IMG/VR virus record: IMGVR_UViG_3300037294_000399
Span: 1 to 64,000 of that record
Strand: one strand, 5' to 3'
DNA: 64,000 bases
Source: a virus
The position numbers and the translations under genes are program-made. Positions 12,482 to 60,083 of the stretch are shown here, piece after piece. Within the stretch, counting starts at the first letter, position 1, and every line of letters starts with the position of its first letter. The notes below the pieces were generated by a model. The model saw nothing but the letters and a program-made list of their open reading frames with translations. It was not told the origin of the DNA and did no database searches.

Positions 12482-13015
12482 TTGAATTATCAAATGGACA
12501 ATAGATTAACACTTATTGGTAAGATTAGATTCGAACCAGAAGACAAGACAAAAAAACACAAGAATCAAGCATCATGGAAAAAAATGGCTATGGTGTTCTT
12601 AGATGGTGATATTTGCGAATACTATGCTTGGTTTATTAAGCGTAGATATAATCTAGTGCTAAACAAACCACTCAGAGGTGCCCATATTTCGTTTATAAAT
12701 GATAGTATGAGGGATTTGACCAACAACGGTGAAATAACAGAAGAGGAAGCCTTAAAAAAGTGGGAAGAGGTGAAAAACCGATGGGATGGTAAAGAAATTG
12801 AAATAGTATTGGACCTTAATCCAAAGAGTGACTATGACCACTGGTGGTTAAACATTCCTCATGATGAAAGAGAACTACTACAAAGTATTAGAACTGAATT
12901 AGGTCTTGGTAAACCATACTGGGGAATGCATATGACTATAGGTATAGTTCATCCAAAACATATTGAATATTCTAAGTATATTGTAAATGGTATTGTAAAT
13001 GGTTTCATACCTTAG
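12482..13015 (+). CDS. 2H phosphoesterase family protein
   Basis: Two HxS/T motifs: AHISF, MHMTIG. Confidence 0.7.
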   Translation: MNYQMDNRLTLIGKIRFEPEDKTKKHKNQASWKKMAMVFLDGDICEYYAWFIKRRYNLVLNKPLRGAHISFINDSMRDLTNNGEITEEEALKKWEEVKNRWDGKEIEIVLDLNPKSDYDHWWLNIPHDERELLQSIRTELGLGKPYWGMHMTIGIVHPKHIEYSKYIVNGIVNGFIP

Positions 13016-13700
13016 CGTGTTTATTTAGATTACCCTCATAAATAATTCCATTTATTTCTCTCGTGGTCGCCCATAATGGTTGTAAGTTACTTAACGCATT
13101 AACCACATTCATTGATGTTTCTTTATCAAACTTAGATACTGGTTTTACGTGGTCAATATGCCACTGTCCATAATTATCCCAAGACATACCTTCAGTAAAT
13201 AAAGAAGTAATATGGTTTTTAAGTTCAATAGCTGAATAACCAAGCAAATCAATAGTGTGACCTTCCTTTTGTTTACCAAGTCTAAATAATGTATCGCTAA
13301 TTAAACGCCTCCAAGCTTTTATGTGTTTAATTTTTTCATAATATATACGATTCCATTCTTTAATTTTATCTTTATTATCTTCTCTATATTTCTGTTGATT
13401 TTTTCTAACTTCATCACCTTTTTTTTGGTAGTATTTTTTTCGATATATTCTATGTTTTTCATTAATAGCTTTACGGTTTTTTTCTTTCCATTTTTTTTTA
13501 GCGATAGCACAAATTTCTTTATTTTTGCTAACATACTCTTTAGCTTTTTGTGTAAGACTATTTTTGTTTATTTTTCGATATTCTTTGGTTATCTTAATTC
13601 TACATAATTTACATTGTCCTCTATAACCATCCTTTGAATTTTTCATTTTATGAAATTCAGATAATTCTTTATCTATTTCACATACACTACATTTTTTCAT
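13005..13700 (-). CDS. HNH-family homing endonuclease (paralog of 7155..7904)
   Basis: WHIDHVKP...NALSNLQPLW; shared KEGHTIDLLGYSA. Confidence 0.85.
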   Translation of the reverse strand: MKKCSVCEIDKELSEFHKMKNSKDGYRGQCKLCRIKITKEYRKINKNSLTQKAKEYVSKNKEICAIAKKKWKEKNRKAINEKHRIYRKKYYQKKGDEVRKNQQKYREDNKDKIKEWNRIYYEKIKHIKAWRRLISDTLFRLGKQKEGHTIDLLGYSAIELKNHITSLFTEGMSWDNYGQWHIDHVKPVSKFDKETSMNVVNALSNLQPLWATTREINGIIYEGNLNKHAKV

Positions 13701-13995
13701 ATATTTTGTTTATTATAAATATCTAATATTTTAAGGAAAGTAGAGTTTGGTGGTTAAAAATTTGTTTTATTGTAAAATAATTAGTACCTTTGTTAAAACA
13801 AATATAAATTATCGTGAGAAAAGTATTAGTTAATAAAATAATTAAAAAATTAAAACTAGCTCATGTGGGTATAAAAAATTATGAATGTAAATCGTTTGAA
13901 TGTTCATTAGATAAATTTTCTTATGAGATACTTAAAGATATTGTTTTGGTTAGATTAGAAGAATTAATAAAGAATCCAAATTTAAAAAGATAATT

Positions 13996-14184
13996 TATGA
14001 CAGAGTATGGTGGTTGAATATACCAAATGACGAAAGAAACGGTTTACAGGGTATTCGTAATGAATTAGGATTAGGTAGACCATTCTTTGGTATGCATATG
14101 TCTATTGGCTACGCAAGACCAGGTATTATGGAAGAACATAGTAAATACATTCACTCTATGATTAAAGATGGTTATATACGATAA
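13996..14184 (+). pseudogene. Orphaned alternative C-terminus of the 2H gene
   Basis: YDRVWWLNIPNDERNGLQGIRNELGLGRPFFGMHMSIG... parallels YDHWWLNIPHDERELLQSIRTELGLGKPYWGMHMTIG. Confidence 0.85.
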
Positions 14185-14227
14185 AAGAGAGCATATGCTC
14201 TCTTTTATTTTAATTAATAACTATAAA

Positions 14228-14485
14228 TTATTGTTCGGTTGAAGCATCGTCATCACCTTTAATCTTCTTGGTGAAGATTTTATCAGCTGAGGCTAAACCT
14301 AAACAACCAAACGATAACATTGCCACTGCGTTTACTAGAGAATCTGACGGTTTAATGTCACCACTAGTGTAGCTGTTTACAAACATTGTAATACACAATG
14401 TTAATCCAGCGAAAATACCCATAAACCTCTTAGAGGAGTATGAACCTTTTTCATCTTGGAAAATTTGCGAAAAGAATTTTTTCAT
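14228..14485 (-). CDS. Small two-TM membrane protein (holin-like)
   Basis: SSKRF followed by two hydrophobic helices. Confidence 0.55.
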   Translation of the reverse strand: MKKFFSQIFQDEKGSYSSKRFMGIFAGLTLCITMFVNSYTSGDIKPSDSLVNAVAMLSFGCLGLASADKIFTKKIKGDDDASTEQ

Positions 14486-14619
14486 GTTTTTTTGTTTTTT
14501 TATTTTATGTTATTTTTACATACATGAATTATGTAAAATAAATCACGTATATTAATAAATATAAAAAAAATTGGTTATCTCATAAATTATATGTACCTTT
14601 GTAACTTAATATTGTAAAT

Positions 14620-16495: not shown

Positions 16496-17233
16496 TTAAA
16501 GCATAGAAATTGCTTTGTTGATATCCTTTAACATTTGAATACAACGATTAGTCAAATAATCAGTATTTTCATCATTCATATAAGCAGTAACGTTTATTGG
16601 TTTATTTGTAAATCTAATAAATTCGTTTTCATGTGACATCCTAGAAAGAACACTAAAATATTCGGATTTAAAAATAAATTCATCTGGGTTGGTGTTGTAG
16701 GCCAAAATAAAAGGAAGTCTTAAATCTTCACGTATAACATCATTTAATAATTTCATCAATCCATCTTCAGTGTCAATATAGTCAATTTTGGCAACAATTT
16801 CGTAAAAACTTTCATAACTACCAAAATTAGCTGCTGACTCATAAGCCATAGACCAACTTTGAACTAAACTATTCGCTTTATAAACATAACGATTACCCTT
16901 TTCAAGTTCAATGGCTTGCTTGTTTTTGATAAAATAAGACATTGGAATCATTGTTCCTCTATAAGTTGTAATATTTTCTGGGACCAATATGTCTGGGTAT
17001 TGATTCATACAACCTTTTAGGTTTGATAAAGCAGAAATAAATTCCTGTGTAGTTTCTTCACCATACATATTATCGGTAAAATCTTTTATTTGCTCTATAT
17101 AATCATTTTCAGTTGGCGTATTACGCTCAGCTCCACCAAATTGGTCACCAAATAATTCATGACCGAAATTCTTAACACAAGATGTTACTTCGTTTTCATT
17201 TACGATGGATTCATATAACTTATAGATTTTCAT
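16496..17233 (-). CDS. Possible R-S-E class ADP-ribosyltransferase
   Basis: TYRG ... QSWS ... ENE in the expected order. Confidence 0.45.
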   Translation of the reverse strand: MKIYKLYESIVNENEVTSCVKNFGHELFGDQFGGAERNTPTENDYIEQIKDFTDNMYGEETTQEFISALSNLKGCMNQYPDILVPENITTYRGTMIPMSYFIKNKQAIELEKGNRYVYKANSLVQSWSMAYESAANFGSYESFYEIVAKIDYIDTEDGLMKLLNDVIREDLRLPFILAYNTNPDEFIFKSEYFSVLSRMSHENEFIRFTNKPINVTAYMNDENTDYLTNRCIQMLKDINKAISML

Positions 17234-18596: not shown

Positions 18597-18623
18597 GGTA
18601 CCTTAGCTCAGTTGGTAGAGCAA
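18597..18623 (+). pseudogene. 5' half of interrupted tRNA-Phe
   Basis: ggtaccttagctcagttggtagagcaa, matching the intact tRNA-Phe at 21416. Confidence 0.8.
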
Positions 18624-18635
18624 GTTTAAAATAAT

Positions 18636-18709
18636 GGACTTCTGGTGTAAATGGTGTGTCATGCTAGTCTGAAGAACTAGAGGTTTCGGTTCGAGTCCGA
18701 GGGAGTCCA
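18636..18709 (+). tRNA. tRNA-Phe(GAA), divergent copy carried by the insertion
   Basis: ctagt-ctGAAga-actag; acceptor ggacttc/ggagtcc. Confidence 0.8.
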
Positions 18710-18789
18710 CAGATAACTTTTTGTAGAACATAATACAAAGTTTTTAGAGCTTTTAGATATAATTAGATATTTATATAAAAACGTAAATT

Positions 18790-19281
18790 ATGTTATTAGA
18801 AGAATTAGTAAAAAAGGGGTTGAATAATACTGAAATAGGTGAAATTTTAGGTATACATAGAACAACAGTTGCAAAGCAAATAAAAAAAGCTGGCATTGAA
18901 CGTGAAATATCAGATACTTGTGTTATTTGTAAAAGTAAAACAAAATCAACTAGAAAAAGATGTGATAGTTGTAACACTAAAATTAGAAGATACAGGGCAA
19001 AAAAAGCGAGTGTTCAATATTTGGGCGGTAAATGTAAAAAATGTGGTTGGAGTGGAAATTTAGCTGGTTATGATTTTCACCATCTAGACCCAGAAAAAAA
19101 AGATTTTAAACCAAGTGCTAATGAATTAGCAAATAAATCTTGGATTAAAGTAAAAGAGGAATTAGATAAATGTGAATTATTATGTGCAATATGTCATAGA
19201 TTAGAACATAATGATTATGAAAATAAAATATTTTTAAAAATAGCTGATTCAGAAAGTGATGATTTAATTTTTAAAAATTAA
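18790..19281 (+). CDS. HNH endonuclease with N-terminal HTH
   Basis: LGGKCKKCG...DFHHLDP...KCELLCAICH. Confidence 0.88.
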   Translation: MLLEELVKKGLNNTEIGEILGIHRTTVAKQIKKAGIEREISDTCVICKSKTKSTRKRCDSCNTKIRRYRAKKASVQYLGGKCKKCGWSGNLAGYDFHHLDPEKKDFKPSANELANKSWIKVKEELDKCELLCAICHRLEHNDYENKIFLKIADSESDDLIFKN

Positions 19282-19293
19282 AACAAGATGCGG

Positions 19294-19323
19294 GTGTCAC
19301 TGGTTCGAATCCAGTAGGTACCA
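19294..19323 (+). pseudogene. 3' half of interrupted tRNA-Phe
   Basis: gtgtcactggttcgaatccagtaggtacca; aggtacc pairs with ggtacct at 18597. Confidence 0.8.
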
Positions 19324-19407
19324 CAAAAGACAAATAGACCACACCTAGGGTTAGTGATTTAATTAAAGGGTCTCATTCAGTATACAAGTCTGAAATTTGT
19401 CTTTCAT

Positions 19408-21415: not shown

Positions 21416-21488
21416 GGTACCGTAGCTCAGTTGGTAGAGCAATGGACTGAAAATCCATGTGTCACTGGTTCGAATCCAGTCGGTACCA
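21416..21488 (+). tRNA. tRNA-Phe(GAA)
   Basis: atgga-ctGAAaa-tccat. Confidence 0.95.
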
Positions 21489-21496
21489 CAAACATT

Positions 21497-22409: not shown

Positions 22410-22726
22410 CTAGAACAAACTCAAGTAGTTTAGAGGTGGCTCCCTTTCCCACATTTGGGATATGTAGAAAAAGAGCTGTGGCTGACCACGGGCATCTAAT
22501 TGGGTTAAATACTCAATGATACAGGGGGCGAAGTTAGACGAAAGGTTTCTAGAATCGAGGTATGGGTATTCCCTTGAGTCCCTGTTCTTCTAGTTTTTTG
22601 TTTGTTTTAGTAAAAACAAACTGGTGGACAGTCAGATTGTTAATTCCAATCGACCCAAAAAAAATGACGTTATCATTTGGTAGTGTCATTTTTTATTTGT
22701 ACCTTTGTAATCTAAAAATAAAAGAA

Positions 22727-23200
22727 ATGACATTAAATTATCAATTAGGATTGTATGTTGGTGAATATATAGTAGCATTGCGTTTGCCAACGTTAAGTAC
22801 TGACATGTTAAAAACTAGAACAATCATTGATGTGTCACCAGAAGAAACAGCTGAGTGGGAAGTGTTGGATGCCCAATATGGTCCAATATATATTAGCGAT
22901 AAAGACCCAGATAAAGAAGCTAAAGAAGAAGCTAGAACTAGGATTTTTTATGAAAATCGTAAATGGTATCATAAGTTAGAAGAAAAATATCTACCAGAAA
23001 CTATAAAAGTACAAGTTCCTAGAGTTGTACCAACTAACATGAAGGAATTTACCAAAGGAATTGAGGATACTTTATGGGATAGTGATTTATCACATTATAG
23101 AATTAATGAAGGTTATTTCGAGCAAACATCTAAGTGTGCATGGTGTTCTTATATTATTTTAACAAGACACATAGAAAAAATTCCAGAAAAATTTGCATAA
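22727..23200 (+). CDS. Hypothetical protein
   Basis: ATG downstream of TACCTTTG promoter. Confidence 0.7.
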   Translation: MTLNYQLGLYVGEYIVALRLPTLSTDMLKTRTIIDVSPEETAEWEVLDAQYGPIYISDKDPDKEAKEEARTRIFYENRKWYHKLEEKYLPETIKVQVPRVVPTNMKEFTKGIEDTLWDSDLSHYRINEGYFEQTSKCAWCSYIILTRHIEKIPEKFA

Positions 23201-23259
23201 TTTAAATATTATTCATACCTTTGTACTCAACAAGTAAAAAAAACTTAAAAAAATAAAAA

Positions 23260-23976
23260 ATGGGATTAAAAGATTTATTTATCGTTAGTGATGAAAAACC
23301 TATCGATAAACCAGTACAAGAACCTGTGAAACAATCTGCTCCAAGCACGACAAAGTTTCCTAGTTCTACACCTAAAACGGAAGAAACGACTTCAAATCCG
23401 TTTAGTTCATTCGGTTTTGGTAGTTCACCAACACCTACTTATCAAGCTGCAACTGTAAGCAATGAAGTATTAGCTAAAACCTTAGAAATGTATGAAGCTG
23501 GTTTTGATTCCCTTAACCAACCAGGATACGACTTCTATGAGTTTTTCAAAACTGTAATGGCTGGTGGTGCTGACAACCCAGCAATCTACGGTATGGCTTT
23601 CGGTATGGGTAGTGCAATGGATAAAACTATTACCAAAGACAAATTATTGATGCAGTCTGAATTTTATATTACTGAAATAAACAAAGTTTACAATGACTAT
23701 GTTGCTAAAGGTAATGGTAAAAGACAAGAAGTTATCAACCAAAAGAATCATGAAAACGAATCATTATTAGGTGAATTGAATTTAATGAGACAACAATTAG
23801 AACAACTTCAAGTTCAAATTTCTGACCGTGAAAACAAACTATCTGTAATTGATAGCAAATATGGTCCAATCTTAAATGAAGTTGAAACTAAAATTACCGC
23901 TAATGATTTAGCAAAACAAAAGATAGTTAGTTCTATCGAACAAGTTAAAAACGGAATTATTAATAATTTAAAATAA
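23260..23976 (+). CDS. Coiled-coil protein (transporter-associated operon)
   Basis: LNQPGYDFYEF motif, C-terminal heptads. Confidence 0.75.
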   Translation: MGLKDLFIVSDEKPIDKPVQEPVKQSAPSTTKFPSSTPKTEETTSNPFSSFGFGSSPTPTYQAATVSNEVLAKTLEMYEAGFDSLNQPGYDFYEFFKTVMAGGADNPAIYGMAFGMGSAMDKTITKDKLLMQSEFYITEINKVYNDYVAKGNGKRQEVINQKNHENESLLGELNLMRQQLEQLQVQISDRENKLSVIDSKYGPILNEVETKITANDLAKQKIVSSIEQVKNGIINNLK

Positions 23977-23987
23977 AAAAAAGAGAT

Positions 23988-25118
23988 ATGCAAACTCAAA
24001 CTCAAACAAGGACATCTACTTTAAATGCAAATTTATCGGAGTTGCCAATTTTAAAACACTTTAACCAAAACGAAATCTCAACCAAAGTTGATACGTTTAG
24101 AAAAGGTGAGAAAAACATGTTCTGGTTCTTTAAATTAGCTGCACTTATTGGTGTTGGTTATTTAACTTGGACATATGTGTTACCGCCAGTATTCCAAGCA
24201 ATTGGACAAATGTTAGCAATTGCGGCTACCGCAGTAATGATTGTTGCGGGTGTTATTATGGCCCCAGTAATTGTTAAAGGTATTCGTTTACTTACTAGAG
24301 CGATTCACAAATCACTTATTAAGTATGACCCATTTGCTCAGTTAGAAATTGAAAGACAAAAAATGCTTGTGAATCAAACAACATTCAGAGTTGCTAAAGG
24401 GAACATTGTTCAATTAAAACAAGAAATGGAAATTGAAGCTGATAGGTCACAAAAAGAAGCTGAAAGTGGTCAAACAAGAGTAATCGCTTTGCAAGGTAAA
24501 GCTGAGAAGTTAAAATTTTCCATGGATGAAATGATTAAATCACAAGGTGTTGCTGCTAAAGGTGAAGATGAGTATGTTAACATGGCTGCTGAATTACAAA
24601 AAGTACTTGCAGAAGCACAACGTGTTGCTAACAAATACAACCAATCAAAAAACTTCGTTCAAAAGTACGGTACTCGTGCTAATGTAATGAAAAAAATGGG
24701 TCAAAAATTAACCCTTGTTGAAACTGCGATGGATATTAAAATCCAAGACTTTGATGCAACTATTGATATGTTGAAAAAAGACTACGAGTTCGGTCAAAAA
24801 TCTAATGCTGCAACAACTGCCGCTAAGTCTGCAATGGGCTTCACAAAAGGCTGGGAGTTTGATTATGCCTTGGATGTTGTTACATCTACGATTGCTGCTG
24901 ATATCGCAATCACGGCTGGTAACTTGAAAGATATTGAAAGTATTACAAGCAACTACACGTTAGATTCTGACGAGTTGTATGCTAACTTGAATGCAGTTGC
25001 TGATAAAATTAAAATTGGTACTGATATCATTCCAGATGCTAGTCAGTATTCAAACCCAGAGTACACTTTGTCATCAAGTGACAAATTAAAATCTGGTGGA
25101 TTTGGTGACATGTTCTAA
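23988..25118 (+). CDS. Membrane-anchored coiled-coil protein (PspA-like architecture)
   Basis: Two TM helices followed by long coiled coil. Confidence 0.7.
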   Translation: MQTQTQTRTSTLNANLSELPILKHFNQNEISTKVDTFRKGEKNMFWFFKLAALIGVGYLTWTYVLPPVFQAIGQMLAIAATAVMIVAGVIMAPVIVKGIRLLTRAIHKSLIKYDPFAQLEIERQKMLVNQTTFRVAKGNIVQLKQEMEIEADRSQKEAESGQTRVIALQGKAEKLKFSMDEMIKSQGVAAKGEDEYVNMAAELQKVLAEAQRVANKYNQSKNFVQKYGTRANVMKKMGQKLTLVETAMDIKIQDFDATIDMLKKDYEFGQKSNAATTAAKSAMGFTKGWEFDYALDVVTSTIAADIAITAGNLKDIESITSNYTLDSDELYANLNAVADKIKIGTDIIPDASQYSNPEYTLSSSDKLKSGGFGDMF

Positions 25119-25384
25119 GAAATATTAGATAAAAAACTGTTCGAGTAGCTATTGCGTCTTATCAACCGATTGTAAAGTAGTGGACAAAATATATACGGGA
25201 TTGCTGAGCCTAAATGAGTAAGAAGGAAGTCATAAGAGTTTTAAACCGATAAGGGTAGTTTCTCCGATGGCGAAAAAAAAAAAAGAAAAAAAAAATGACA
25301 AAATGTTTGGTAGATTAAAAAAGAATATGTACCTTTGTCATGTTAAATTAAATAAAGTAAATTTTATAAACTAAAAATAAACAA

Positions 25385-27199: not shown

Positions 27200-27312
27200 G
27201 AATAAATATAAATTAAAAATCCTCAGAGAAATCTGGGGATTTTTTTTGTAAAAAGATTTGGAAGTTCGAATTAAATTTCGTACCTTTGTCTTATAAATTT
27301 TAAAACAATAAA

Positions 27313-28083
27313 ATGAAAAGATTATTTAAACCGTTTGAGCGACTTAAAGGTTCTAGTACAACAACAATACTAGTTTCTTGGTTAGTTATCTTATTTGTGT
27401 TTTGGGGTGTAAATAGCTTAGGAACAACAAACATGTTCCCAACACCAAAACAAGTACTACATGGATTACAAAATTTATGGTGGGAAGGTCTCATTGTTCA
27501 TTTGGGTAGTTCAATTGCGTTGTGTGGTCAAGCAGTATTTATTTCAATAGTGATTTCATTACTATTTGCTTATACGTCAGCAATTCCATTTTTTAAACCA
27601 GTAGGTACCTTTATATCTAAGCTTAGATATTTGCCATTGACGGGTATTGCGTTTTATTTAGCTATAATAATTCAAGATGCTAGAAATCTTCAAGTATGGG
27701 TTCTTGTAGTGTTTATGACAACATTCTTAACTACTGGTCTTATGCAAATGATTAAAGATATACCAGAAGAAGAATTTGACCACGCTAGAACACTTGGGTG
27801 TAACAGATGGGAAACACTTTGGGAAGTTGTAATTAAAGGTCGTATTGACTACGTATTTGAGTTAGTAAGGCAAAACTTAGCTATTGTGTGGATGATGCTT
27901 GTAACTGTTGAATCTATTCTTGTAGCTGCTGGTGGGTTAGGGTTCCTAATTAAAAACAATGATAAGTTAGGTGATGCTGGTAAAGTAATTGCTTTGCAAA
28001 TAATCATAGTAGTGGTAGGGTTGTCTTTGGACTTCATCATCACAAAATTGAGAAAATTAATCTTTAGATATTCAAACTATTAA
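27313..28083 (+). CDS. ABC transporter permease (SsuC/TauC-like)
   Basis: FPTP, RYLP, EAA-like loop ARTLG, GLGFLI. Confidence 0.88.
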   Translation: MKRLFKPFERLKGSSTTTILVSWLVILFVFWGVNSLGTTNMFPTPKQVLHGLQNLWWEGLIVHLGSSIALCGQAVFISIVISLLFAYTSAIPFFKPVGTFISKLRYLPLTGIAFYLAIIIQDARNLQVWVLVVFMTTFLTTGLMQMIKDIPEEEFDHARTLGCNRWETLWEVVIKGRIDYVFELVRQNLAIVWMMLVTVESILVAAGGLGFLIKNNDKLGDAGKVIALQIIIVVVGLSLDFIITKLRKLIFRYSNY

Positions 28084-28086
28084 TAT

Positions 28087-28908: not shown

Positions 28909-29025
28909 TGAATAAAGAATAAAAAACCATATATTACATCTAAAAAACACATTGAATATATTTATAGTATGTGTTAATGTTAAATTGAGTACCAAAACAT
29001 AATATTAACCTTAAACAAAGATAAA

Positions 29026-29190
29026 ATGAAAAAAATGATTCTTGTTCTTGTTGTGATAGCGTCTTTAACAGCATGTACTGGTAAAGCTAAAACACAAGAT
29101 ACTACTGCTACGGATTCGACAGCGGTAACAATTGATTCAGTTGCTACTAGTGTAGATACTACAACAGTAGATACAACTGCAACTAAATAA
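29026..29190 (+). CDS. Small Thr/Asp-rich lipoprotein
   Basis: MKKMILVLVVIASLTAC lipobox; DTT/DST/DSV repeats. Confidence 0.75.
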   Translation: MKKMILVLVVIASLTACTGKAKTQDTTATDSTAVTIDSVATSVDTTTVDTTATK

Positions 29191-29333
29191 TTATGAGTGG
29201 GGCATTAATTTGCCCCTCTTATACTAGGAAAAATAAGACCCATCATGTGTTTAAAAGCACTAGGTCACGACTAAATATAATACTATGGACAGTGAGAGGA
29301 ACAGTAACGAGAAAAGTGATGGCGACAGTCTGC

Positions 29334-39942: not shown

Positions 39943-40011
39943 ATGGATATTAGAAAAAACATAGAACCAACAGATTTTGAAGTTGGGGTCATAATAGGGC
40001 GATTTATTTAA
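39943..40011 (+). pseudogene. Orphaned N-terminus of the NMNAT gene
   Basis: MDIRKNIEPTDFEVGVIIGRFI* parallels EVGVVVGRFQ at 40870. Confidence 0.85.
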
Positions 40012-40091: not shown

Positions 40092-40865
40092 ATGGAAAAT
40101 AAACCCGTAGTGTATAAAATCACAAATTTGATTAACAATAAAAAATATGTTGGTAGTGCTAAATCATTTATTAAACGTAAAAAAGACCATTTAAATAGAT
40201 TAAAAAATAATAAACACCATTCTAAAAAGTTACAAAATTCTTTTAACAAATATGGTGAAGACGCTTTTGAATTTAATATTTTAGAAGTTGTAGAAGATAT
40301 CAATCTATTAATTCAAACCGAACAAAAATGGATTGATGAATTAAAACCAGAGTATAATATGACATTAATCGCTGGATTAAATAGTCATTTAGGTATGAAA
40401 CGTTCAAATGAAACTAAAAAGAAAATTAGTGATGCTTTGACTGGTAGAAAATTGAGTGATGAACATAAAGAAAAAGTTAGGCAAACGCTAACTGGTAAAA
40501 AATTTAGTGAAGAACGTAAAGAAAAACACAAAAAGGCTTTAAATGAGTCGACAAAATTTAAAGAAATGTTAAAATCAAAAGAAAGAAACGAAAAAATTAA
40601 ACAAACTAGATTAAAAAACGGAGGGTACATCGTTACCTATGAAACAAAAAAATTAATAAGTGAAACGTTAAAAAAACAAAATCTACAATCAGCTATTAGT
40701 GTTGAAATAGAAAAATATAGTTTAGATGGTGGTTTTATTGAATCTTATCCGAGTATGCTCAAAGCTGAAAACGATAATAACATAGGTAGAGGTTGTTTGT
40801 ATTATAATTTGGTTAAAAATAAAAAAGAAGAGTATAAAGGATTTATTTGGAAATTTAAAAATTAA
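40092..40865 (+). CDS. GIY-YIG homing endonuclease
   Basis: VVYKITNLINNKKYVGS, NUMOD3 and NUMOD1-like motifs. Confidence 0.9.
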   Translation: MENKPVVYKITNLINNKKYVGSAKSFIKRKKDHLNRLKNNKHHSKKLQNSFNKYGEDAFEFNILEVVEDINLLIQTEQKWIDELKPEYNMTLIAGLNSHLGMKRSNETKKKISDALTGRKLSDEHKEKVRQTLTGKKFSEERKEKHKKALNESTKFKEMLKSKERNEKIKQTRLKNGGYIVTYETKKLISETLKKQNLQSAISVEIEKYSLDGGFIESYPSMLKAENDNNIGRGCLYYNLVKNKKEEYKGFIWKFKN

Positions 40866-43299: not shown

Positions 43300-44418
43300 T
43301 CAGTAGTTGGAACTAAAAATGTTTTGTTCGTTATCGAATCTTTAGATGAGAACTGCGCATGGTTAACCAATTTTTTAGAAACTATCTTGTTGCAAGTATG
43401 GTATCCAATTACGGTTGCTACACTTTCAAGAGAAGTTCGTAAAATCGTAGATGCTAGTTTTCAAAAAAACACATCATATGATACTGGGTTAAGAGAGTTT
43501 CTGGTTGATTACGTGTTGAATGACTTCGGTTTCCGTGGTGTATCGTCTGTACAATCAGCTGGTATTGGTGGGTCTGCTCACTTGGTAAACTTTAGAGGTT
43601 CTGATACAATCATGGCATCTAAATACATCAGAGATTACTACAATACAGAAACAGTTTATGGGTTATCTATCCCAGCAACTGAACACTCTATCATGACACT
43701 TAAAGGTGAAGAAGGTGAATTGGAAATGATGAAACGAGTACTTACAACATTCCCTACTGGGTTAGTTGCGTGTGTATCTGATTCATACAATATCTTTCGT
43801 GCATGTTCTGAGTATTGGGGAACTGAATTGAGAGACTTAGTACTATCTCGCCCATCAGAACCAGGAAATCAACTAGTTATCCGTCCAGATTCTGGTGACG
43901 TGTTAATGACATTGAAAGAAATTTTCACTATATTATTCGACAAATTCGGTTACACAGTAAACGATAAGGGTTATAAAGTGTTACCACCACAAGTTCGTGT
44001 GATTCAAGGTGATGGTGTTAATCTAGATTCAATTAAAGAAATCTACGCATTGTTAGAGGAAGAAAAAATATCACCAGAAAACTTAGCTTTAGGTATGGGT
44101 GGTAAATTATTACAAGCAGTGGACCGAGACACATGTGCATTTGCTACCAAAGCTTGTACAGCCGTAGTTGACGGTGTTGAAGTTGAAGTACAGAAAAATC
44201 CTACCGAAATGGACGAGAATGGGAATTTAACAAAAAGTTTCAAAAAGTCTAAAAAGGGTAGATTGAAGTTGGTAAAAACTGATAACGGTTATATTACTTT
44301 AACTTCTAAAGATGAAGGATTCGAAGAAGCTAAGGATGAACTCGTAGAGGTTTTCCGCATGGGAGATATTCTTAAAGAGTGGTCTTTTGAGGAAATCCGT
44401 GAGAGAGCCAAAATTTAA
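43300..44418 (+). CDS. nadV: Nicotinamide phosphoribosyltransferase, exon 2
   Basis: DFGFRG, PATEHS, VSDSY, IRPDSG, QGDG, KKSKKG. Confidence 0.92.
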   Translation, partial: SVVGTKNVLFVIESLDENCAWLTNFLETILLQVWYPITVATLSREVRKIVDASFQKNTSYDTGLREFLVDYVLNDFGFRGVSSVQSAGIGGSAHLVNFRGSDTIMASKYIRDYYNTETVYGLSIPATEHSIMTLKGEEGELEMMKRVLTTFPTGLVACVSDSYNIFRACSEYWGTELRDLVLSRPSEPGNQLVIRPDSGDVLMTLKEIFTILFDKFGYTVNDKGYKVLPPQVRVIQGDGVNLDSIKEIYALLEEEKISPENLALGMGGKLLQAVDRDTCAFATKACTAVVDGVEVEVQKNPTEMDENGNLTKSFKKSKKGRLKLVKTDNGYITLTSKDEGFEEAKDELVEVFRMGDILKEWSFEEIRERAKI

Positions 44419-44433: not shown

Positions 44434-45345
44434 CTATAGAATGGCTTTTATGTTTTTTAATATATCATCTTCATCATGTTTGATACTAATTAGGTTAATC
44501 TTTTTGAAACTACAATAATCAAGTTTTATCTTATCTTTCTTTTGTCGGTCCTTTAAACCCAATACACCACCCCATTGTTGTATAGTTTCAAAGTGTTGTC
44601 TACCTTGATATTCAATACATGTATTATATTTTGGTAAATAGAAATCGAATGGTAATGGTCTTTTATCTCTACAATCTGGAAATCTGTGTTGTGGTGTAAA
44701 TTCAATATCATTTTCAAGTAACCATTCTAAAATTTTTTCTTCACCTTTGGATATTATACATAATGGACATCTAGTACCACTTTTATGGTTCGATGGTAAT
44801 TGTTCAAAATCACCATGTTTAGAACAGATAATAGTAACCTTGGTCCTATTATCAACATAATTTACTTTAGAGTAATCATATTTGTTTCCGTGAACCAATT
44901 TAGCTTTTTTAATAAAAGTATCTGTATCGTCACTAAAATCGTTTGAAACCTTATCTAATGAACATTGTTTACAACCACTACCATTTAAATGATTAGTGGC
45001 TTTTTGTGTAAATTCACCATGCAACGGACATTCTATAGTAATACAATTTAATGCACCAATATAATTTATGTTACTATAATTGTAAAAAAAACCATGAATT
45101 TTTTCAGCTTTTTCAATAAATTTATTTCTAGTTGTTTTTGTGCTATTTCTACCACATGAATAGCATCCGTAACCCTTTAAGTGACCATTTGGTGTTTGTT
45201 CAAATTCTCCATGAATAGGACATATAATGATTACTTTAATATTTCTATTGGTATAGTTAACTTTAGTGTAATCATATTTATCACTATGTAGAATAGTTGC
45301 CTCAATAACAAACTCAGCTGTTGTTTTACGTTTCTCAGCACCCAT
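44434..45345 (-). CDS. Homing endonuclease (DUF723-like repeats plus Vsr/DUF559-like nuclease)
   Basis: Paralog of 29334..30251; LPFDFYLP...IEYQGRQH. Confidence 0.85.
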   Translation of the reverse strand: MGAEKRKTTAEFVIEATILHSDKYDYTKVNYTNRNIKVIIICPIHGEFEQTPNGHLKGYGCYSCGRNSTKTTRNKFIEKAEKIHGFFYNYSNINYIGALNCITIECPLHGEFTQKATNHLNGSGCKQCSLDKVSNDFSDDTDTFIKKAKLVHGNKYDYSKVNYVDNRTKVTIICSKHGDFEQLPSNHKSGTRCPLCIISKGEEKILEWLLENDIEFTPQHRFPDCRDKRPLPFDFYLPKYNTCIEYQGRQHFETIQQWGGVLGLKDRQKKDKIKLDYCSFKKINLISIKHDEDDILKNIKAIL

Positions 45346-45497
45346 TATTTAAGAGAATTAAAATGTTGTTCTAATAACCAGTTAATTAATTTAGATTTAT
45401 TGATTTTTTCATCAGACATTAATTCATAATTATCTTTTGAAATAGATAACGATATTTTTGTTTTTTTATCTTCTTGTGGTTTTATTTTTCTTCCCAT
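45345..45497 (-). CDS. Small ribbon-helix-helix-like protein
   Basis: KISLSIS...INKSKLINWLL; stop overlaps HEG start. Confidence 0.6.
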   Translation of the reverse strand: MGRKIKPQEDKKTKISLSISKDNYELMSDEKINKSKLINWLLEQHFNSLK

Positions 45498-45778: not shown

Positions 45779-46087
45779 ATGATAAAATTAAGTGATACAC
45801 AAAACTTTGCAACCAAAGCATGTTATGCCATTGTAAATGGTGAAGAAAAGAACATAATCAAGTCACCAACTGAAATGGACGCTAACGGTAACATTACAAA
45901 ATCATTTAAGAAATCAAAACAAGGTTTGCTTAAATTGGTTAAGAATGAAGATGGTACCTTTAGAACAGTAACTTCAATGGATACTGAGTTCAACAATGTT
46001 ACAGACGAGTTGGTAGAAGTATTTAGAAACGGTATAATCACTAAAGAATGGACATTCGAAGAAGTGAGAGAACGAGCAAAACTTTAA
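45779..46087 (+). pseudogene. Orphaned alternative C-terminus of NAMPT
   Basis: DTQNFATKAC...KSFKKSKQG...EEVRERAKL parallels the last ~97 aa of 43300..44418. Confidence 0.88.
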
Positions 46088-49878: not shown

Positions 49879-49918
49879 ATTAAATTAATGGTTGTGCCTT
49901 TGTTAAAAATATGCCAAT

Positions 49919-50122
49919 ATGATAGAATCAGTTGATTATTTTGGTGGTACAAGTGGTTTAAAAGAACAACAGAAGAAAGATAAAATAAAAAAAGATTACT
50001 GTGACAATAATAAAATAAAGTTAATAATAATAAAATACAATGAAAAAACAGATAATTTATTAACTAAAATAAATAAAATAAATAAAATAAATAAAATTTT
50101 AAAAAATAATGGTAAAAATTAA
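49919..50122 (+). pseudogene. C-terminal remnant of a Vsr-like HEG
   Basis: FGG..GLKEQQKKDKIKKDYC...IIIKY matches the ends of 44434 and 51704 ORFs. Confidence 0.7.
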
Positions 50123-51722
50123 ATTTAAAGATTTAACTGAAATTGAAATTGAGAAATTTAGGTTAGAATATGTTAATAGGTTAGAAAATAATTTAACAGT
50201 TGAGAAATTAGCAATTAAAATTAGTAATGACTTAGGGTTATCGGAAAGAACCGTTAGAAAATGGTTTAAAAAATTAAACTTCAAAGAAAAAGTTGAAATT
50301 GAACCAGAACAGTATGTAAAAGCCAAAACAAGAGTCCATGACGGGACTAAAAAACGTTTTATAATAAGTTGGGCCCAGAACAATACACCTGTTCATACTG
50401 GTTTGATGAAAAACTTAGAAGCTTATGGTGAATTTATCGATGCTGATATCCATATCATAGCTGGTAGGTATAGAAACCCTACTAGTATGTGGACAAATCA
50501 ACAAGAAGAATCAGAATTTTGGGTTTCAGAGGTATTACCATACTTAGACGCTAATAGACATGACATACATAAGTATGTGTCTATTATGTCAGATATTAAG
50601 ATTCAACCAACTGCTGTGAACCCAATGACTGGGTTACAAGCGTTGAGTGGTATTAATTCTTGTGTGTTTGGTAGTCCAAAGGTTCAATTAGAAATGATTC
50701 CAGTATTAGAAGGTAACAACCCTAAAATGATGACTACTACTGGTGCGGTAACTAAAAAGAATTATACTGATTCTAAAGCTGGTAAAACTGGTGACTTCCA
50801 TCATACATTTGGTTTTGTTATCGTTGAGATTAAAGATGATAATACTTTTTTCCTAAGACAGGTAACTGCTGATGACAAAACAGGTAACTTTACTGATTTA
50901 TATTATCGAGTTGAAAAAGGTGAAGTAAGTGAAGTAACTAAATTTGCTGCGGCTATCTTAGGTGATATTCACTACGGACATCATGACCAAGAAGTTTTAG
51001 ATACAACGCTTAGTTTATTTGAACGAGTAAAACCACAGCACGTTATATTACATGACGTATTTGATGGTTCTTCAATTAGTCATCATGAGATGAAAGACCC
51101 TTTCATTCAATACGGTAAAGAAATATCTGGCACCAACGACTTAGGTAAAGAGGTTGATTTTATGTTGGAATCTTTAAAGTCGTTTGAAAAGTTTGATAAT
51201 GTGGTTATTGTTAGAAGTAATCATGATGATTTCTTAGACCGTTGGCTTAAGAATGAAGATTGGAAGAAACAACCAACATACAAAAATTCTAGGCTTTATA
51301 TGAAAATGTCTGATATGTTATTAGAACAATATGCTAATGACCCATACAACGTAAAAGGTGTAATCCCAAGTATCATCAATCAGAAGTTTCCTAAGTTTAT
51401 CACACTAGGTCGAAGTGCTTCTTATCGAGTTAAAGATTGGGAACTGGGTCAACATGGTGATATTGGTTCAAATGGTAGTCGAGGTTCATTATTACAATTC
51501 AGAAAATTAAACACTAAGATTGTTGTTGGACATTACCACTCGCCTGGTCGTAAGGACGGAGCGTTAGCCGTAGGTACATCAACAAAATTAAGGGTAGGTT
51601 ATAACAGAGGTGCGAGTTCATGGTTACAATCACATGTTATCATCCACACAGATGGTCGAGCCCAACACATAAATTTTATGCTAGATAAAGACGGTAACTT
51701 GGGTTATACTACTTTTGAATAA
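50109..51722 (+). CDS. HTH plus metallophosphoesterase protein
   Basis: LSERTVRKW; GDIH, HD, SNHD, QHG, GHYHS. Confidence 0.8.
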   Translation: MVKIKFKDLTEIEIEKFRLEYVNRLENNLTVEKLAIKISNDLGLSERTVRKWFKKLNFKEKVEIEPEQYVKAKTRVHDGTKKRFIISWAQNNTPVHTGLMKNLEAYGEFIDADIHIIAGRYRNPTSMWTNQQEESEFWVSEVLPYLDANRHDIHKYVSIMSDIKIQPTAVNPMTGLQALSGINSCVFGSPKVQLEMIPVLEGNNPKMMTTTGAVTKKNYTDSKAGKTGDFHHTFGFVIVEIKDDNTFFLRQVTADDKTGNFTDLYYRVEKGEVSEVTKFAAAILGDIHYGHHDQEVLDTTLSLFERVKPQHVILHDVFDGSSISHHEMKDPFIQYGKEISGTNDLGKEVDFMLESLKSFEKFDNVVIVRSNHDDFLDRWLKNEDWKKQPTYKNSRLYMKMSDMLLEQYANDPYNVKGVIPSIINQKFPKFITLGRSASYRVKDWELGQHGDIGSNGSRGSLLQFRKLNTKIVVGHYHSPGRKDGALAVGTSTKLRVGYNRGASSWLQSHVIIHTDGRAQHINFMLDKDGNLGYTTFE

Positions 51723-52292
51723 GTTAATTTATCACCAACATTGTCATTATATTTAATAATAATAAGTGGAATATTGTTTAGTAAACAATATTCCCTTTTT
51801 ATTTTATCATTAATTTTCCTAGAATTAAACCCTTGAACCCCACCAAAATGTTCAACTACTTTATAATGTTGAATCCCGTTAAATTCAATACAAATATTAA
51901 AATCTGGTAAATAGAAATCAAAAGGTAATTTTAATTTATTTTTACAATTATTAAATTTATATTGTGGTAAATAATTGATATTAAATGACTCTAAAAAAAA
52001 CTCTAATTTTTTTTTCACCTAGTGATTCATTACAAGTTGGGCAACCATTACCATTCTTATGATTATTTGGTGTTTGGTTAAAAACCCCGTGTTTTAAACA
52101 TTTTATAATTATTTTTTTATGGGCTGAAACATAAATAACTTTAGAATAATCATATGTTTCACCATGTATTTTTTTAAAATCGTTAATTAATTTTAAGATT
52201 GTTGGTTTTTCTAACCCAGCACATTGTTTACAACCTTGGCCATTTTTATGGTTATTAATTGTTTGTGTGAAATTACCACTTTTTTTTATCAT
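51704..52292 (-). pseudogene. Truncated, frameshifted DUF723/Vsr-like HEG
   Basis: Two overlapping frames joined at a homopolymer run near 52010. Confidence 0.75.
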
Positions 52293-55708: not shown

Positions 55709-55846
55709 TTACAAATTTTTAATTAGGTCCTCAATAAATTTAGATTTATTATTTGTTAATTTTTCTAATTTTAAATTAGTTTCATTAGATAAAGTAATAC
55801 TAACTTTTACTTTTTTATCTTCTTTTGGTAATTTAGGTCGTGCCAT
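55709..55846 (-). CDS. Small ribbon-helix-helix-like protein
   Basis: MARPK...KVSITLS...NKSKFIEDLI. Confidence 0.55.
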   Translation of the reverse strand: MARPKLPKEDKKVKVSITLSNETNLKLEKLTNNKSKFIEDLIKNL

Positions 55847-56428: not shown

Positions 56429-56932
56429 ATGAAATTTGATATATTAAAAACAAGACGGGGGAAACTTTCAGAAAAACTAAATAATGAGATTCAAAAACCC
56501 AAACCAAACATTGAAAATGTTTTAAGAATCATAGATGATTATGAAAAAAATAACTTGGAAACTATAGATAAATTAAAGAAAGAAAAGTTATTTGAAACAA
56601 AAAGAATAAGTGGTGCGCTTAAACAAACAATAAATGCACATTCAAATATAACAAAAGAATTAATTGGGAGTGCAACTAAAAGAATAATGGGTGCGTTAAA
56701 ATCAAATGATTTAACTCAATCCCAAAAAATTTGTAAAAAAATTAGTAGTATTTATCATACTTTTATAAATATAATTATATTTATAATTAAACTAGAGTTT
56801 ATGAAAACAAATAAAGATAAAATATCTGTAACTATTTCAAATAAAAATAATGAGTTATTAAATAACTTATCTATTAATAAATCTAAATTAATAGATAAGT
56901 TATTAGATAATTATTTCAAAAAGATTGATTAA
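56429..56932 (+). CDS. Hypothetical protein read through into an RHH-like ORF
   Basis: Internal MKTNKDKISVTIS...INKSKLIDKLL from 56801. Confidence 0.6.
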   Translation: MKFDILKTRRGKLSEKLNNEIQKPKPNIENVLRIIDDYEKNNLETIDKLKKEKLFETKRISGALKQTINAHSNITKELIGSATKRIMGALKSNDLTQSQKICKKISSIYHTFINIIIFIIKLEFMKTNKDKISVTISNKNNELLNNLSINKSKLIDKLLDNYFKKID

Positions 56933-56934: not shown

Positions 56935-57720
56935 ATGGGTTGTATTATTGAAAATATATCAATAGAAAATAACTATAACGTTATTTATGGTTTGTTAGAA
57001 CCAAACACACATGAGATTAAATATATTGGTAAAACAATTAATTTAAAAGAAAGAGTTAGGAAACATTTACAACCGTCAAAATTGGTTAAAAAGAATTATA
57101 AAAACAATTGGTTAAATAAATTAATTAAAAATAACGAGAGACCAATTGTTGTTGTTCTAGAAAATTGTTCAAGTGAAGAAAACTTAAATGATGCAGAGAT
57201 TAAATGGATTTCTCACTACTTGGATATAGGTTGTAGTTTAACAAATGCAACTATAGGTGGTGATGGTGGTAAAATGTTACCCGAATCGATTACCAAAATG
57301 AAGATGACCAAAAAAGAAAACCCTCAAACACCGTACTGGTTAAATAAAGTTTTTAGTGAAACACATCGAAATAATATATCGTGTGGGAAAAAAGGTTATA
57401 CACCAACAATTGAAACTCGTAATAAATTGTCAGAATCACACAAGGGTTTAAATATTTGGAGTAAGGGTAAACAATTAAGTTTAGAAATTAAAGAAAAAAT
57501 GAGTATGAGTAAGTCTGGTAAACCAAAAAATTTAACTCCAGTTTATCAATTATCATTAAATAACGAAATAATAAAGGAATGGGGTAACCCATACGAAGCC
57601 GAGCAATTTCTATCAATAAGTCGAGGAAAAATAAATTCTGTTTGTAATGGAAAAAGAAAAACGACTGGTGGTTTTAAATGGGTTTATATCAAAGACTATA
57701 AGGATGGCGATGAAAATTAA
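56935..57720 (+). CDS. GIY-YIG homing endonuclease
   Basis: VIYGL...KYIGKT, LTNATIGGDG, NUMOD1-like C-terminus. Confidence 0.88.
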   Translation: MGCIIENISIENNYNVIYGLLEPNTHEIKYIGKTINLKERVRKHLQPSKLVKKNYKNNWLNKLIKNNERPIVVVLENCSSEENLNDAEIKWISHYLDIGCSLTNATIGGDGGKMLPESITKMKMTKKENPQTPYWLNKVFSETHRNNISCGKKGYTPTIETRNKLSESHKGLNIWSKGKQLSLEIKEKMSMSKSGKPKNLTPVYQLSLNNEIIKEWGNPYEAEQFLSISRGKINSVCNGKRKTTGGFKWVYIKDYKDGDEN

Positions 57721-57736
57721 AATAAAAAAAATAATA

Positions 57737-57901
57737 CCAATAACTTCAGTGTTGATTGGTTCAGCAACAAAAAGAATACATGGTGCTCTTTTAAGTAATG
57801 GTTCAAAACATAATCACTATCTAAGGGTTCACAAAGCAACATTAATGCTAATAACAATGGTTTTAATAGTGGCAAGTGTATTTGTGGTATTAATAAAATA
57901 A
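57737..57901 (+). pseudogene. Orphaned alternative C-terminus of the 56429 gene
   Basis: ITSVLIGSATKRIHGALLSN parallels ITKELIGSATKRIMGALKSN. Confidence 0.8.
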
Positions 57902-57914
57902 AGTTTTAAATTAA

Positions 57915-58757
57915 ATGACAAAATTAACAGCTATCTTTAAAGAAAATTGGGGTTCAATATTATTTTCATATTTCCTTTTTTCGATGCAATCCATTTTTAT
58001 ATTGATTTACCCAAAAGTTTTAGGTGAATCAATTGACCACTTGATAGCTAAAGATTATTCTTTTATGTTTTATCTGGTTTTAACTTTTTTTGGTATGATG
58101 ATTTTTAATTATTTTAGTAGAGTTTATGATACTATAGTTTTCTCTAGAATATATAGACGTTTTGCTTCTATTGAAACTAGTAAACAGTTTGATAATAATA
58201 TTGAAACAACTAAAATTAATGGTAGATTAACATTAATGTCTAGTATTGTTAACTTTTTTGAACGAGATATGGTTAGTATACTTAACGCTGCTTTTGGTCT
58301 AATTGGTTCAATTTATTTTATATCTTTAGTTGACGCAACATTAGTACCTTATTTAATTTTTAGTGGTGTATTAACGTTAATAATTAGTTATTATTTTTCA
58401 CCAAAAATAGCGTTAATAACTAAAGATTCGAATGATATATCTGAAGAACAAACTGACATCATCAACCAACGAAAAATATCATTAGTAAATAATTTGTTAA
58501 GAAGAAAACAATCATTATCTGTTAAATTGTCTAATCTAGATGCTAAATTCTTTTTTCTTATTCAATTTATTGCTTATGGAACAGTGACAGCTCTATTAAC
58601 ATATTATGTAGTATTCAATAATGTAAGTGTGGGTAGCGTATTCTCAACTTATAGGTATCTTTTTGACTTTGTGGTTTCTGTGTCGATACTACCACACATA
58701 ATAATATCATTTATTAACATTAAAGACGTAATTAAACGTTTAGAAACAGAAAATTAG
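57915..58757 (+). CDS. ABC-transporter transmembrane-domain-only protein
   Basis: About six TM helices; RVYDTIVFSRIY, FFE. Confidence 0.7.
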   Translation: MTKLTAIFKENWGSILFSYFLFSMQSIFILIYPKVLGESIDHLIAKDYSFMFYLVLTFFGMMIFNYFSRVYDTIVFSRIYRRFASIETSKQFDNNIETTKINGRLTLMSSIVNFFERDMVSILNAAFGLIGSIYFISLVDATLVPYLIFSGVLTLIISYYFSPKIALITKDSNDISEEQTDIINQRKISLVNNLLRRKQSLSVKLSNLDAKFFFLIQFIAYGTVTALLTYYVVFNNVSVGSVFSTYRYLFDFVVSVSILPHIIISFINIKDVIKRLETEN

Positions 58758-58761
58758 AATT

Positions 58762-58821
58762 ATGGAAAATATAAATAAATTATCGGTATTTGATTTTGAT
58801 GGAACGTTGGTTGTAAAATAA
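58762..58821 (+). pseudogene. Orphaned N-terminus of the HAD gene
   Basis: MENINKLSVFDFDGTLVVK* parallels MEKKITRLAVFDFDGTLL at 59559. Confidence 0.85.
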
Positions 58822-58867
58822 ATTTGATTTTGAGAAATATTGTGATATTTATTAATAAAACAATATT

Positions 58868-59554
58868 ATGGAAAAAAAGATTTGTCAAATTTATAAAATA
58901 GTTTCGCCATCTGGTAGAATTTATATCGGTAAAACGAGTAATTTAAAATTAAGACTTGATTATTATAGACGTTTAAAATGTAAAAAACAACCATTAATAT
59001 ATTACTCATTATTAAAATATGGTTTTAGCGGTCATAGTTTTGATGTTATATACGAAGGTGAACATTCGTTAAATGAAATAAATGAAATTGAAATCAATTA
59101 TATAAATGAATATAATTCTTTTCATGGTAATAATGAAAACGGAATGAATTTAACATTAGGTGGTGATGGTGGTTTTGGTGTTATTTATTCAGAGGAACGT
59201 AAACAAAAAATAAGAGAAGCAAATAAAAATAGAGTTTATAACCCACATTCAGAAGAAACAAAAAAATTAATTTCTGAAAATAGAAAAAAAACTGGTAAAA
59301 CTTTAGCTCACCAGAAAGCTATTGATAACCTTAGAGGTAAAAAAATAATTAAATCTGAAGAATGGGTTAAAAATAATGCTGAAAGTATTAAAAAACCTAT
59401 TTTACAATACGATTTAAATAACAATTTTATTAAAGAATGGAAAAGTGCACAAGATGTTGAGAATGAACTTGGGTTGTCTAGAAAAAACATTAGTGCAAAT
59501 TTAAGAAATAAAACAAAACACGCTTATAAATACATTTGGAAATATAAAAACTAA
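58868..59554 (+). CDS. GIY-YIG homing endonuclease
   Basis: QIYKIVSPSGRIYIG, MNLTLGGDG. Confidence 0.9.
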   Translation: MEKKICQIYKIVSPSGRIYIGKTSNLKLRLDYYRRLKCKKQPLIYYSLLKYGFSGHSFDVIYEGEHSLNEINEIEINYINEYNSFHGNNENGMNLTLGGDGGFGVIYSEERKQKIREANKNRVYNPHSEETKKLISENRKKTGKTLAHQKAIDNLRGKKIIKSEEWVKNNAESIKKPILQYDLNNNFIKEWKSAQDVENELGLSRKNISANLRNKTKHAYKYIWKYKN

Positions 59555-59558
59555 TATT

Positions 59559-60083
59559 ATGGAAAAAAAAATAACTAGACTAGCTGTTTTCGATTTTGAC
59601 GGCACTTTATTAATGACACCTCTTCCAGAATTTGGTAAAAAAGAATACCAAGAAAAAACTGGAAAGGTTTGGCCTTTCCCTGGATGGTGGGGACAACCTT
59701 TGAGCTTAGATATGGATATCTTTGATATGCCAACGGTGCCAATGGTTACTTCAGCATATAAGAAAGAGAAAGTTAACGCAAACACATGTATGGTTATGTT
59801 GACTGGTCGAATAGTGAAGCTAGGTGACTTGGTAAAGAAAATCTTAGACGCAAAAGGGTTAATATTCGATGAGTACCATTTCAACAGAGGTGGTAGTACT
59901 GATGTTGCTAAAATAAAAACAATGGAATCATTGTTAGAAAAATATGCTAACGTAAATGAATTAGAAGCTTGGGATGACCGTAAGGAGCATATCCCAATAT
60001 TTCAAGAATTTGGTGATAAGTTGGTTAAAGCTGGTCGATTAACGAGTTTTAAAATTAATTTAGTTCCAGCACATAGACATTAA
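59559..60083 (+). CDS. HAD phosphatase (RNA-repair-associated type)
   Basis: FDFDGTL..TP, WW, LTGR, K, WDDR. Confidence 0.8.
   Translation: MEKKITRLAVFDFDGTLLMTPLPEFGKKEYQEKTGKVWPFPGWWGQPLSLDMDIFDMPTVPMVTSAYKKEKVNANTCMVMLTGRIVKLGDLVKKILDAKGLIFDEYHFNRGGSTDVAKIKTMESLLEKYANVNELEAWDDRKEHIPIFQEFGDKLVKAGRLTSFKINLVPAHRH

Follow-up and report, generated by a model that had tools for sequence, protein, structure and literature searches.

Homing endonuclease genes lying between two diverged copies of the same gene end in the genome of an uncultured phage

The window analyzed here covers the first 64 kb of a contig of 96,307 bp from an uncultured phage (IMG/VR record IMGVR_UViG_3300037294_000399), and at six loci in it a homing endonuclease gene lies between a piece of a conserved gene that is still part of that gene (the in-gene piece) and a diverged, orphaned copy of the same piece. 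A seventh such cassette, at the SmpB gene, lies on the same contig outside the window at 71.1-73.1 kb. The GC content is about 31% across the window, and the only sequencing run that contains the whole stretch is a salt-lake metagenome, which is the likely source. A search of the GenBank phage collection found no relative that is close at the DNA level. Related IMG/VR contigs reach 230-370 kb, and the virus is therefore probably a large or jumbo phage. The window encodes about 21 tRNAs and a number of auxiliary functions, including PARP-like, RNase R/II-like, RlaP and HAD_SAK RNA-repair, NAMPT, NMNAT/Nudix and NADAR genes. Comparisons were made with IMG/VR loci (L numbers) and with contigs from two further runs (X3 and X4); the endonuclease-free relatives come from independent metagenomes, and the L004 record does not include the tRNA region. 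The features of the seven loci, with open reading frames abbreviated as ORFs, are as follows:

12482..13015, + strand: 2H-like phosphoesterase gene, a hybrid (PHROG 12204; HxS/HxT motifs recognized by eye)
from about 12842 (WWLNIP): foreign C-terminal piece of the 2H-like gene
13005..13700, - strand: endonuclease VII-like (HNH-type) homing endonuclease gene, family A (PHROG 1035, E 7e-19)
14008..14184, + strand: native C-terminal end of the 2H-like gene, orphaned, its own stop codon included
18597..18623, + strand: 5′ half of the disrupted resident tRNA-Phe (orphan), colinear with L071 679-705, where the tRNA-Phe is intact
18636..18710, + strand: replacement tRNA-Phe(GAA) in the cassette
18790..19281, + strand: HNH homing endonuclease gene with an N-terminal helix-turn-helix (HTH), family D (PHROG 2255, E 7e-24; HTH matches)
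19294..19324, + strand: orphaned 3′ half of the resident tRNA-Phe
39943..40005, + strand: orphaned native N-terminus of the NMNAT/Nudix gene, ending exactly after GRF, colinear with L003 up to 2584
40092..40865, + strand: GIY-YIG homing endonuclease gene C3 (Pfam GIY-YIG, E 2.5e-10), missing in L003 and L004
40870..41874, + strand: NMNAT/Nudix gene, first 23 codons (40870-40938) foreign
43300..44418, + strand: NAMPT exon 2, 98-100% identical to L003 up to about 44117, with a foreign C-terminal piece from 44118
44434..45345, - strand: treble-clef/DUF723 zinc-finger homing endonuclease gene, family B (PHROG 559)
45345..45497, - strand: small ribbon-helix-helix (RHH)-like ORF immediately preceding the family B endonuclease gene, within the inserted unit
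45792..46087, + strand: orphaned native NAMPT C-terminus, overlapping the NADAR start as in relatives
56429..56932, + strand: gene 56429, a hybrid; native to about 56716 (..SNITK), then a foreign piece from LIGSATKR to the tail
56935..57720, + strand: GIY-YIG/NUMOD3 homing endonuclease gene C1, missing in L062
57736..57901, + strand: orphaned native C-terminus of gene 56429, colinear with the intact gene of L062
58762..58821, + strand: orphaned HAD N-terminus just downstream of gene 56429, 19 codons ending in DFDGTLVVK and then a stop
58868..59554, + strand: GIY-YIG/NUMOD1 homing endonuclease gene C2, also in L061 and L062 at 99%
59559..60083, + strand: HAD (HAD_SAK_1) gene, N-terminus replaced as far as DFDGTL
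contig 71138-71230: orphaned SmpB N-terminus
contig 71236-72186, - strand: T5orf172/zinc-finger endonuclease gene with a small RHH ORF
contig 72608-73060: intact SmpB (Pfam E 7e-53)

The six loci in the window had been proposed by an initial annotation made from the sequence, as endonuclease genes between two diverged versions of one gene segment, and all six were recovered by an all-versus-all comparison of translated ORFs followed by flank-versus-flank comparisons; the duplication of gene ends around the endonuclease genes is confirmed at every one. Three geometries are present. The replaced piece is C-terminal in the 2H-like, NAMPT and 56429 genes and N-terminal in the NMNAT and HAD genes, as that annotation had it, and the order of the parts in the N-terminal cases is the mirror image of that in the C-terminal ones; in the third geometry a whole tRNA is replaced. 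The pairs of in-gene and orphaned pieces match at 34 of 60 amino acids (61% nucleotide identity) in the 2H-like gene (12842-13015 versus 14008-14184), 62 of 96 (61%) in NAMPT (44128-44418 versus 45794-46087), 22 of 39 (58%) in gene 56429 (as aligned, 56591-56707 versus 57683-57799), 8 of 19 (67%) in NMNAT (40870-40938 versus 39943-40005, both ending at GRF) and 12 of 18 (70%) in HAD (59559-59615 versus 58762-58821). The repeats are thus about 58-70% identical in nucleotide sequence, and at the conserved residues of the NAMPT, HAD, 2H and 56429 pairs roughly half of the codons (41-60%) are spelled differently; “recoded” is an apt term for the replacement pieces in a descriptive sense. Chance duplication can be excluded, because a mismatched-flank control at 80 other loci gave no such duplicates and because relatives place each insertion to within about 16 nt or better.

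All of the endonuclease genes are separate, stand-alone ORFs, three of them on the strand opposite to the target gene. Pfam and PHROGs searches confirm the nuclease families, with homing-nuclease and DNA-binding domains of the types GIY-YIG with NUMOD, PHROG 2255, PHROG 1035, PHROG 559 with treble-clef fingers, and T5orf172. They fall into four sequence families rather than the three unrelated ones first counted, and these probably belong to two superfamilies, GIY-YIG/T5orf172 and HNH/endonuclease VII. Searches of solved structures and of NCBIfam sequences returned nothing for families A and B. An Rfam search at the six cassettes found no intron, and the gene ends are duplicated, not interrupted. 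The cassette ORFs contain no recombinase or integrase domain, in agreement with the earlier impression that no integrase is visible, and no identical att repeats are present.

The insertion points and the ancestral copy can be read directly from close relatives, most fully at NAMPT. The NAMPT DNA is 98-100% identical to L003 as far as about 44115 and about 60% identical thereafter, and homology resumes with the orphan from about 45791. In protein sequence the N-terminal part is 99.2% identical to those of the endonuclease-free L003 and L004 and the orphan 95.9%, versus 64.9% for the in-gene end. The X3 and X4 contigs join 44117 directly to 45792 with 11 ancestral nucleotides between them, so that 1,674 bp have been inserted in place of 11 nt; the family B endonuclease gene is absent in L003, L004, X3 and X4. 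Further upstream, a 970-bp insert (42330-43299) that contains an HNH ORF (42551-43210) also interrupts NAMPT (41895-44418). This insert looks like an intron (the last nucleotide is T in the 5′ exon and G in the insert), and its Rfam group I match falls below threshold (E 7.5e-5). It is missing in L001 and L006 and occupies the same site in L002; the closest relatives, L003 and L004, have a 79%-similar insert 100 bp further downstream, after which the first exon codons are synonymously recoded.

At NMNAT, the L003 sequence follows the orphan as far as ..CGATTT and, beginning at CAAAC, the in-gene copy (94.5% identical), which places the insertion exactly after GRF with no bases lost. At gene 56429, L062, which does not have the C1 cassette, is colinear with the N-terminal part of the gene to ..SNITK and then with the orphan, and the insertion boundary is fixed to about 5 nt. 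At the tRNA locus a 670-bp insert (18624-19293) takes the place of 16 nt of the anticodon arm of a tRNA-Phe that is intact in L071, and the two separated halves retain their matching T7-A66 acceptor pair. The replacement tRNA-Phe shares only 48 of 75 nt with the resident type but has 95% identity to the native tRNA-Phe of the endonuclease-free L073. The initial annotation correctly saw replacement of a whole tRNA-Phe, but it took the tRNA-Phe at 21416-21489 to be the orphan; L071 shows that the orphan is the pair of split halves, and the 21416 gene is a separate, intact paralog that differs from the disrupted gene only at the 7-66 acceptor pair. At these four loci (tRNA-Phe, NAMPT, NMNAT and gene 56429) the endonuclease-free relatives thus show that the orphan is the ancestral copy and the in-gene piece foreign, as had been predicted.

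The other three loci point in the same direction less strongly. Among 31 endonuclease-free relatives of the 2H-like gene, 23 are nearer to the orphan, 6 nearer to the in-gene piece and 2 tied, and all eight SmpB relatives resemble the orphan more than the in-gene N-terminus (the SmpB cassette corresponds to L154 1138-3060, contig 71138-73060); these weaker trends suggest that the orphan is ancestral there too. The HAD orphan occupies the ancestral position beside gene 56429, and distant relatives read DFDGTLV as it does, which hints weakly that it is the ancestral copy. A 17-nt similarity between the start of the C2 endonuclease gene and the start of HAD was considered as a scar of cassette formation and dropped as a likely coincidence of AT-rich sequence. 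An ABC_membrane_3-like gene (57915-58757) lies between the 56429 and HAD orphans, and 57936-58682 is missing in L062.

Across the window, L003, L004, L062, L071, X3 and X4 each lack some of the cassettes, others are shared with L029, L061 and L062, and both occupied and empty alleles are reproduced in independent assemblies. The junctions were originally described as lying at conserved motifs, which is correct only qualitatively. Canonical conserved sites are indeed among them: motif I of HAD (DxDxT), the nucleotide-binding motif of NMNAT and the anticodon arm of the tRNA. The conservation is not exceptional where it was ranked, at about 45-65 of 361 windows for NAMPT (approximately the top 15%) and about 69 of 166 for the 2H-like gene (mid-range).

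Movement of a cassette as a unit is seen at the 2H-like gene. L029 carries the same cassette, with an endonuclease that is 100% identical in amino acid sequence. Over 3.9 kb of alignment the two genomes differ at 252 columns, with flanks about 6.5% different, yet a block of 1,210 bp (12806-14015) has no mismatch at all. Its left edge lies 36 nt ahead of the foreign end of the gene and its right edge 8 nt inside the orphan, and the orphans of the two genomes are about 9% different in nucleotide sequence, much like the flanks. The block matches the extent of the new end together with the endonuclease gene and spacer, and the replacement piece therefore travels with the endonuclease gene. The simplest reading is that these three parts homed recently into two genomes that had already diverged, in which the homology arms would have been the N-terminal part of the gene on one side and the genome's native end on the other. 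Just upstream, an ORF at 12095-12472 matches a short fragment of Pfam Gp23 (major capsid), and L029 has no counterpart to it between 12067 and 12501.

Each locus is thus probably a composite homing cassette, made up of a free-standing endonuclease gene and a stretch of the target gene from a diverged donor phage, and these comparisons support the structural and evolutionary parts of the interpretation first offered for this DNA. The gene stretch would be the donor sequence that lay between the nuclease cut site and the endonuclease gene. Free-standing phage endonucleases typically cut a neighboring gene at a distance, with co-conversion of the intervening donor sequence, and one-sided, illegitimate break repair is documented in T4 homing (PMC2988022). 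The cassettes most likely originated by such one-sided repair of a double-strand break, in which one broken end would have used homology to invade the donor, copying from it both the gene end and the endonuclease gene, and the other would have been joined with little or no homology, leaving the recipient's own gene end as the orphan. The pattern observed is the one that an illegitimate first event of this kind should leave, with one side joined by homologous crossover, the other by an abrupt AT-rich junction, and hardly any recipient bases missing; the losses observed in four cases are 0, about 5, 11 and 16 nt. The spare end would keep the resident gene whole as a hybrid, with the target site split and its neighboring sequence spelled differently, and both cassette junctions do differ in sequence from the empty site. 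Once formed, the cassette could use the orphan as its second homology arm and move into any naive allele in the manner of a mobile intron, minus the splicing, in which case cut site and insertion site would coincide, as they do for introns. Cleavage at the junction and resistance of the hybrid to it are likewise predictions of this scheme. The same architecture in fungal mitochondria has been ascribed to an endonuclease with demonstrated activity (PMC3630166).

Several observations sit uneasily with this scheme. The close relatives of the HAD locus all carry the cassette and none is endonuclease-free, and the HAD orphan is just 19 codons long. The tRNA-Phe at 21416-21489 has not been invaded despite an anticodon arm identical to that of the disrupted gene, so the HNH target must include other positions or the enzyme must be weak. 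The best protein match to the foreign NAMPT end is 84%, homologs of the family B endonuclease are at most 51% identical, and a donor search found no genome with the endonuclease gene and the matching gene end but no orphan. Finally, flank duplicates are not the usual state of family B genes, since 80 other loci include only about two to three independent events with them.

The last of these points is also what one would expect if the orphans were one-off scars, left by sloppy repair after ordinary intronless homing and forming no defined unit with a role in spread. The illegitimate repair known from T4 (PMC2988022) could produce such scars, and four of the cassettes have each been found in just one lineage. 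On the other hand, the 2H cassette is identical over its 1,210 bp between genomes whose flanks and orphans have diverged, with block ends near the cassette edges, and seven events in one 96-kb contig are many for accidents, which makes this explanation unlikely, though it is the strongest of the competitors. There is very little chance that gene ends were duplicated in tandem, diverged in place and had endonuclease genes lodged between them later, since the in-gene piece is about 35-40% diverged while the adjoining part of the gene is 98-100% and the orphan about 96% identical to relatives, another lineage has the replacement tRNA-Phe as its native allele, and a duplication without an endonuclease gene, which would have told against the original proposal, was seen in none of the relatives checked. 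It is just as improbable that relatives lost the cassettes by precise deletion or that the structures are metagenome assembly chimeras: every sequence used is a metagenome assembly and direct repeats can mediate deletion, but the empty alleles contain 11 nt (NAMPT) and 16 nt (tRNA-Phe) that the window lacks, so those alleles cannot result from deletion, distant relatives uniformly have uninterrupted genes, and the occupied alleles recur in independent samples (L029, L061 and L062).

Other endonuclease genes of the contig are arranged differently. A tblastx comparison of the flanks of 13 endonuclease genes in the window (E<0.05) recovered four of the known cases, short N-terminal pieces escaping this method, and found no flank duplicate at 7152-7901, 29334-30251, 2661-3290, 4735-5736, 60094-60738, 51704-52292 or 16496-17233. 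Two of these genes, 29334-30251 and 7152-7901, lie in plain intergenic insertions with cargo ORFs and no gene-end duplication (28982-30877 relative to L071 and 6606-9409 relative to L029, respectively). The domains of an ATP-dependent DNA ligase are split over ORFs 3923-4681 and 5744-6583 around the NUMOD3 endonuclease gene at 4735-5736, a genes-in-pieces arrangement in the same genome. Decayed remains of family B endonuclease genes are present as a C-terminal fragment (49907-50119, + strand) and as a copy in two ORFs (51704-52292, - strand). L071 also does not have a 6-kb block (22675-28728) that encodes an OmpA-domain protein, an ABC ATPase (28087-28908) and others.

Small RHH-like ORFs, weakly similar to CcdA, recur near the cassettes, at 45345-45497 (- strand), 56801-56932 (+ strand), 55721-55846 (- strand) and L154 2188-2322 (- strand). 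Such an ORF lies upstream of family B endonuclease genes and also upstream of endonuclease genes in L085 and L097. The same sequence forms the tail of the new end of gene 56429, ahead of the GIY-YIG gene, where the foreign end is fused in frame to it (56801-56932), and a lone copy lies in a 338-bp stretch that is missing in L062.

It is possible, and we would put it forward only tentatively, that cassettes carrying a replacement are a general, convergent third route by which endonuclease genes enter conserved coding and tRNA genes of phages and small-genome microbes, beside introns and inteins and beside intergenic lodging, with the orphan as a portable homology arm and the small RHH protein perhaps as a recurrent accessory. 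If so, the displaced native end would make homing independent of neighboring gene order, and the cassettes would drive the formation of mosaic gene ends at catalytic motifs. The loci described here show how homing endonucleases can enter functional phage genes at conserved motifs with neither a ribozyme nor an intein, and they account for orphan fragments and hybrid gene ends that are a source of error in the annotation and phylogeny of phages. For several uncharacterized nucleases the loci also supply natural pairs of a candidate cut site (the empty allele) and a presumed resistant allele. They further tie phage biology to a 30-year-old phenomenon of fungal mitochondria, the mobile endonuclease ORFs (mORFs), and by analogy to cleave-and-rescue gene drives.

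A close phage parallel is the intronless homing of T4 (SegF, SegG, SegB and MobE; PMC2988022, PMC2330249), where free-standing GIY-YIG and HNH genes likewise lie beside a presumed target, are present or absent among close relatives and take donor flanks along when they move; the targets of SegB even include a tRNA cluster. In T4, however, the recipient segment is overwritten and no orphan results, whereas here the displaced piece is retained and the insertion point is the presumed cut site, as it is for introns. The Aeh1 nrdA-a/mobE/nrdA-b arrangement (PMC3045599), mobile group I introns and inteins also allow an endonuclease gene to invade a conserved gene with its function preserved, but with the present cassettes the protein remains a single chain and nothing is spliced; a spare end is used instead. 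Three solutions thus occur in one window, the replacement cassettes, the split ligase (3923-6583) and the intron-like NAMPT insert. Islands and prophages that move by an integrase and rebuild the tRNA or tmRNA gene they enter resemble the cassettes in supplying a replacement for the displaced part of the gene, and differ in having the integrase and identical att repeats that are missing here. In Cleave-and-Rescue, a synthetic gene drive, a nuclease comes together with a rescue copy recoded so that it cannot be cut, an engineered analogy only.

A literature search found no phage precedent (subscription papers lay outside its scope), and T4-family reviews, a pangenome paper and a recent survey of phage endonucleases do not mention such duplications. 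The replacement-end design itself is nevertheless already known from the mORF gene hybrids of fungal mitochondria, which include Allomyces macrogynus atp6, Glomus atp6, atp9, cox2 and nad3, Rhizopus atp9 and Mortierella cox2 (PMC3630166). The phage cassettes differ from these in several respects other than their phage rather than organellar setting. Their nucleases are GIY-YIG, HNH, endonuclease VII-like and zinc-finger enzymes instead of mostly LAGLIDADG, and each is a separate ORF, often on the opposite strand, where mORFs are fused in phase with the gene. Besides C-terminal replacements there are N-terminal and whole-tRNA ones, seven cassettes lie in one genome, and one cassette is present as an identical block in two diverged genomes. 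The order of parts is nonetheless the same, with a gene core, an in-frame foreign C-terminus, the endonuclease ORF and the displaced native C-terminus; in mORFs, as here, the native piece is nearly identical to that gene in a close relative, the inserted piece is about 60-80% identical, and the whole has been read as the result of horizontal transfer driven by the endonuclease (PMC3630166).

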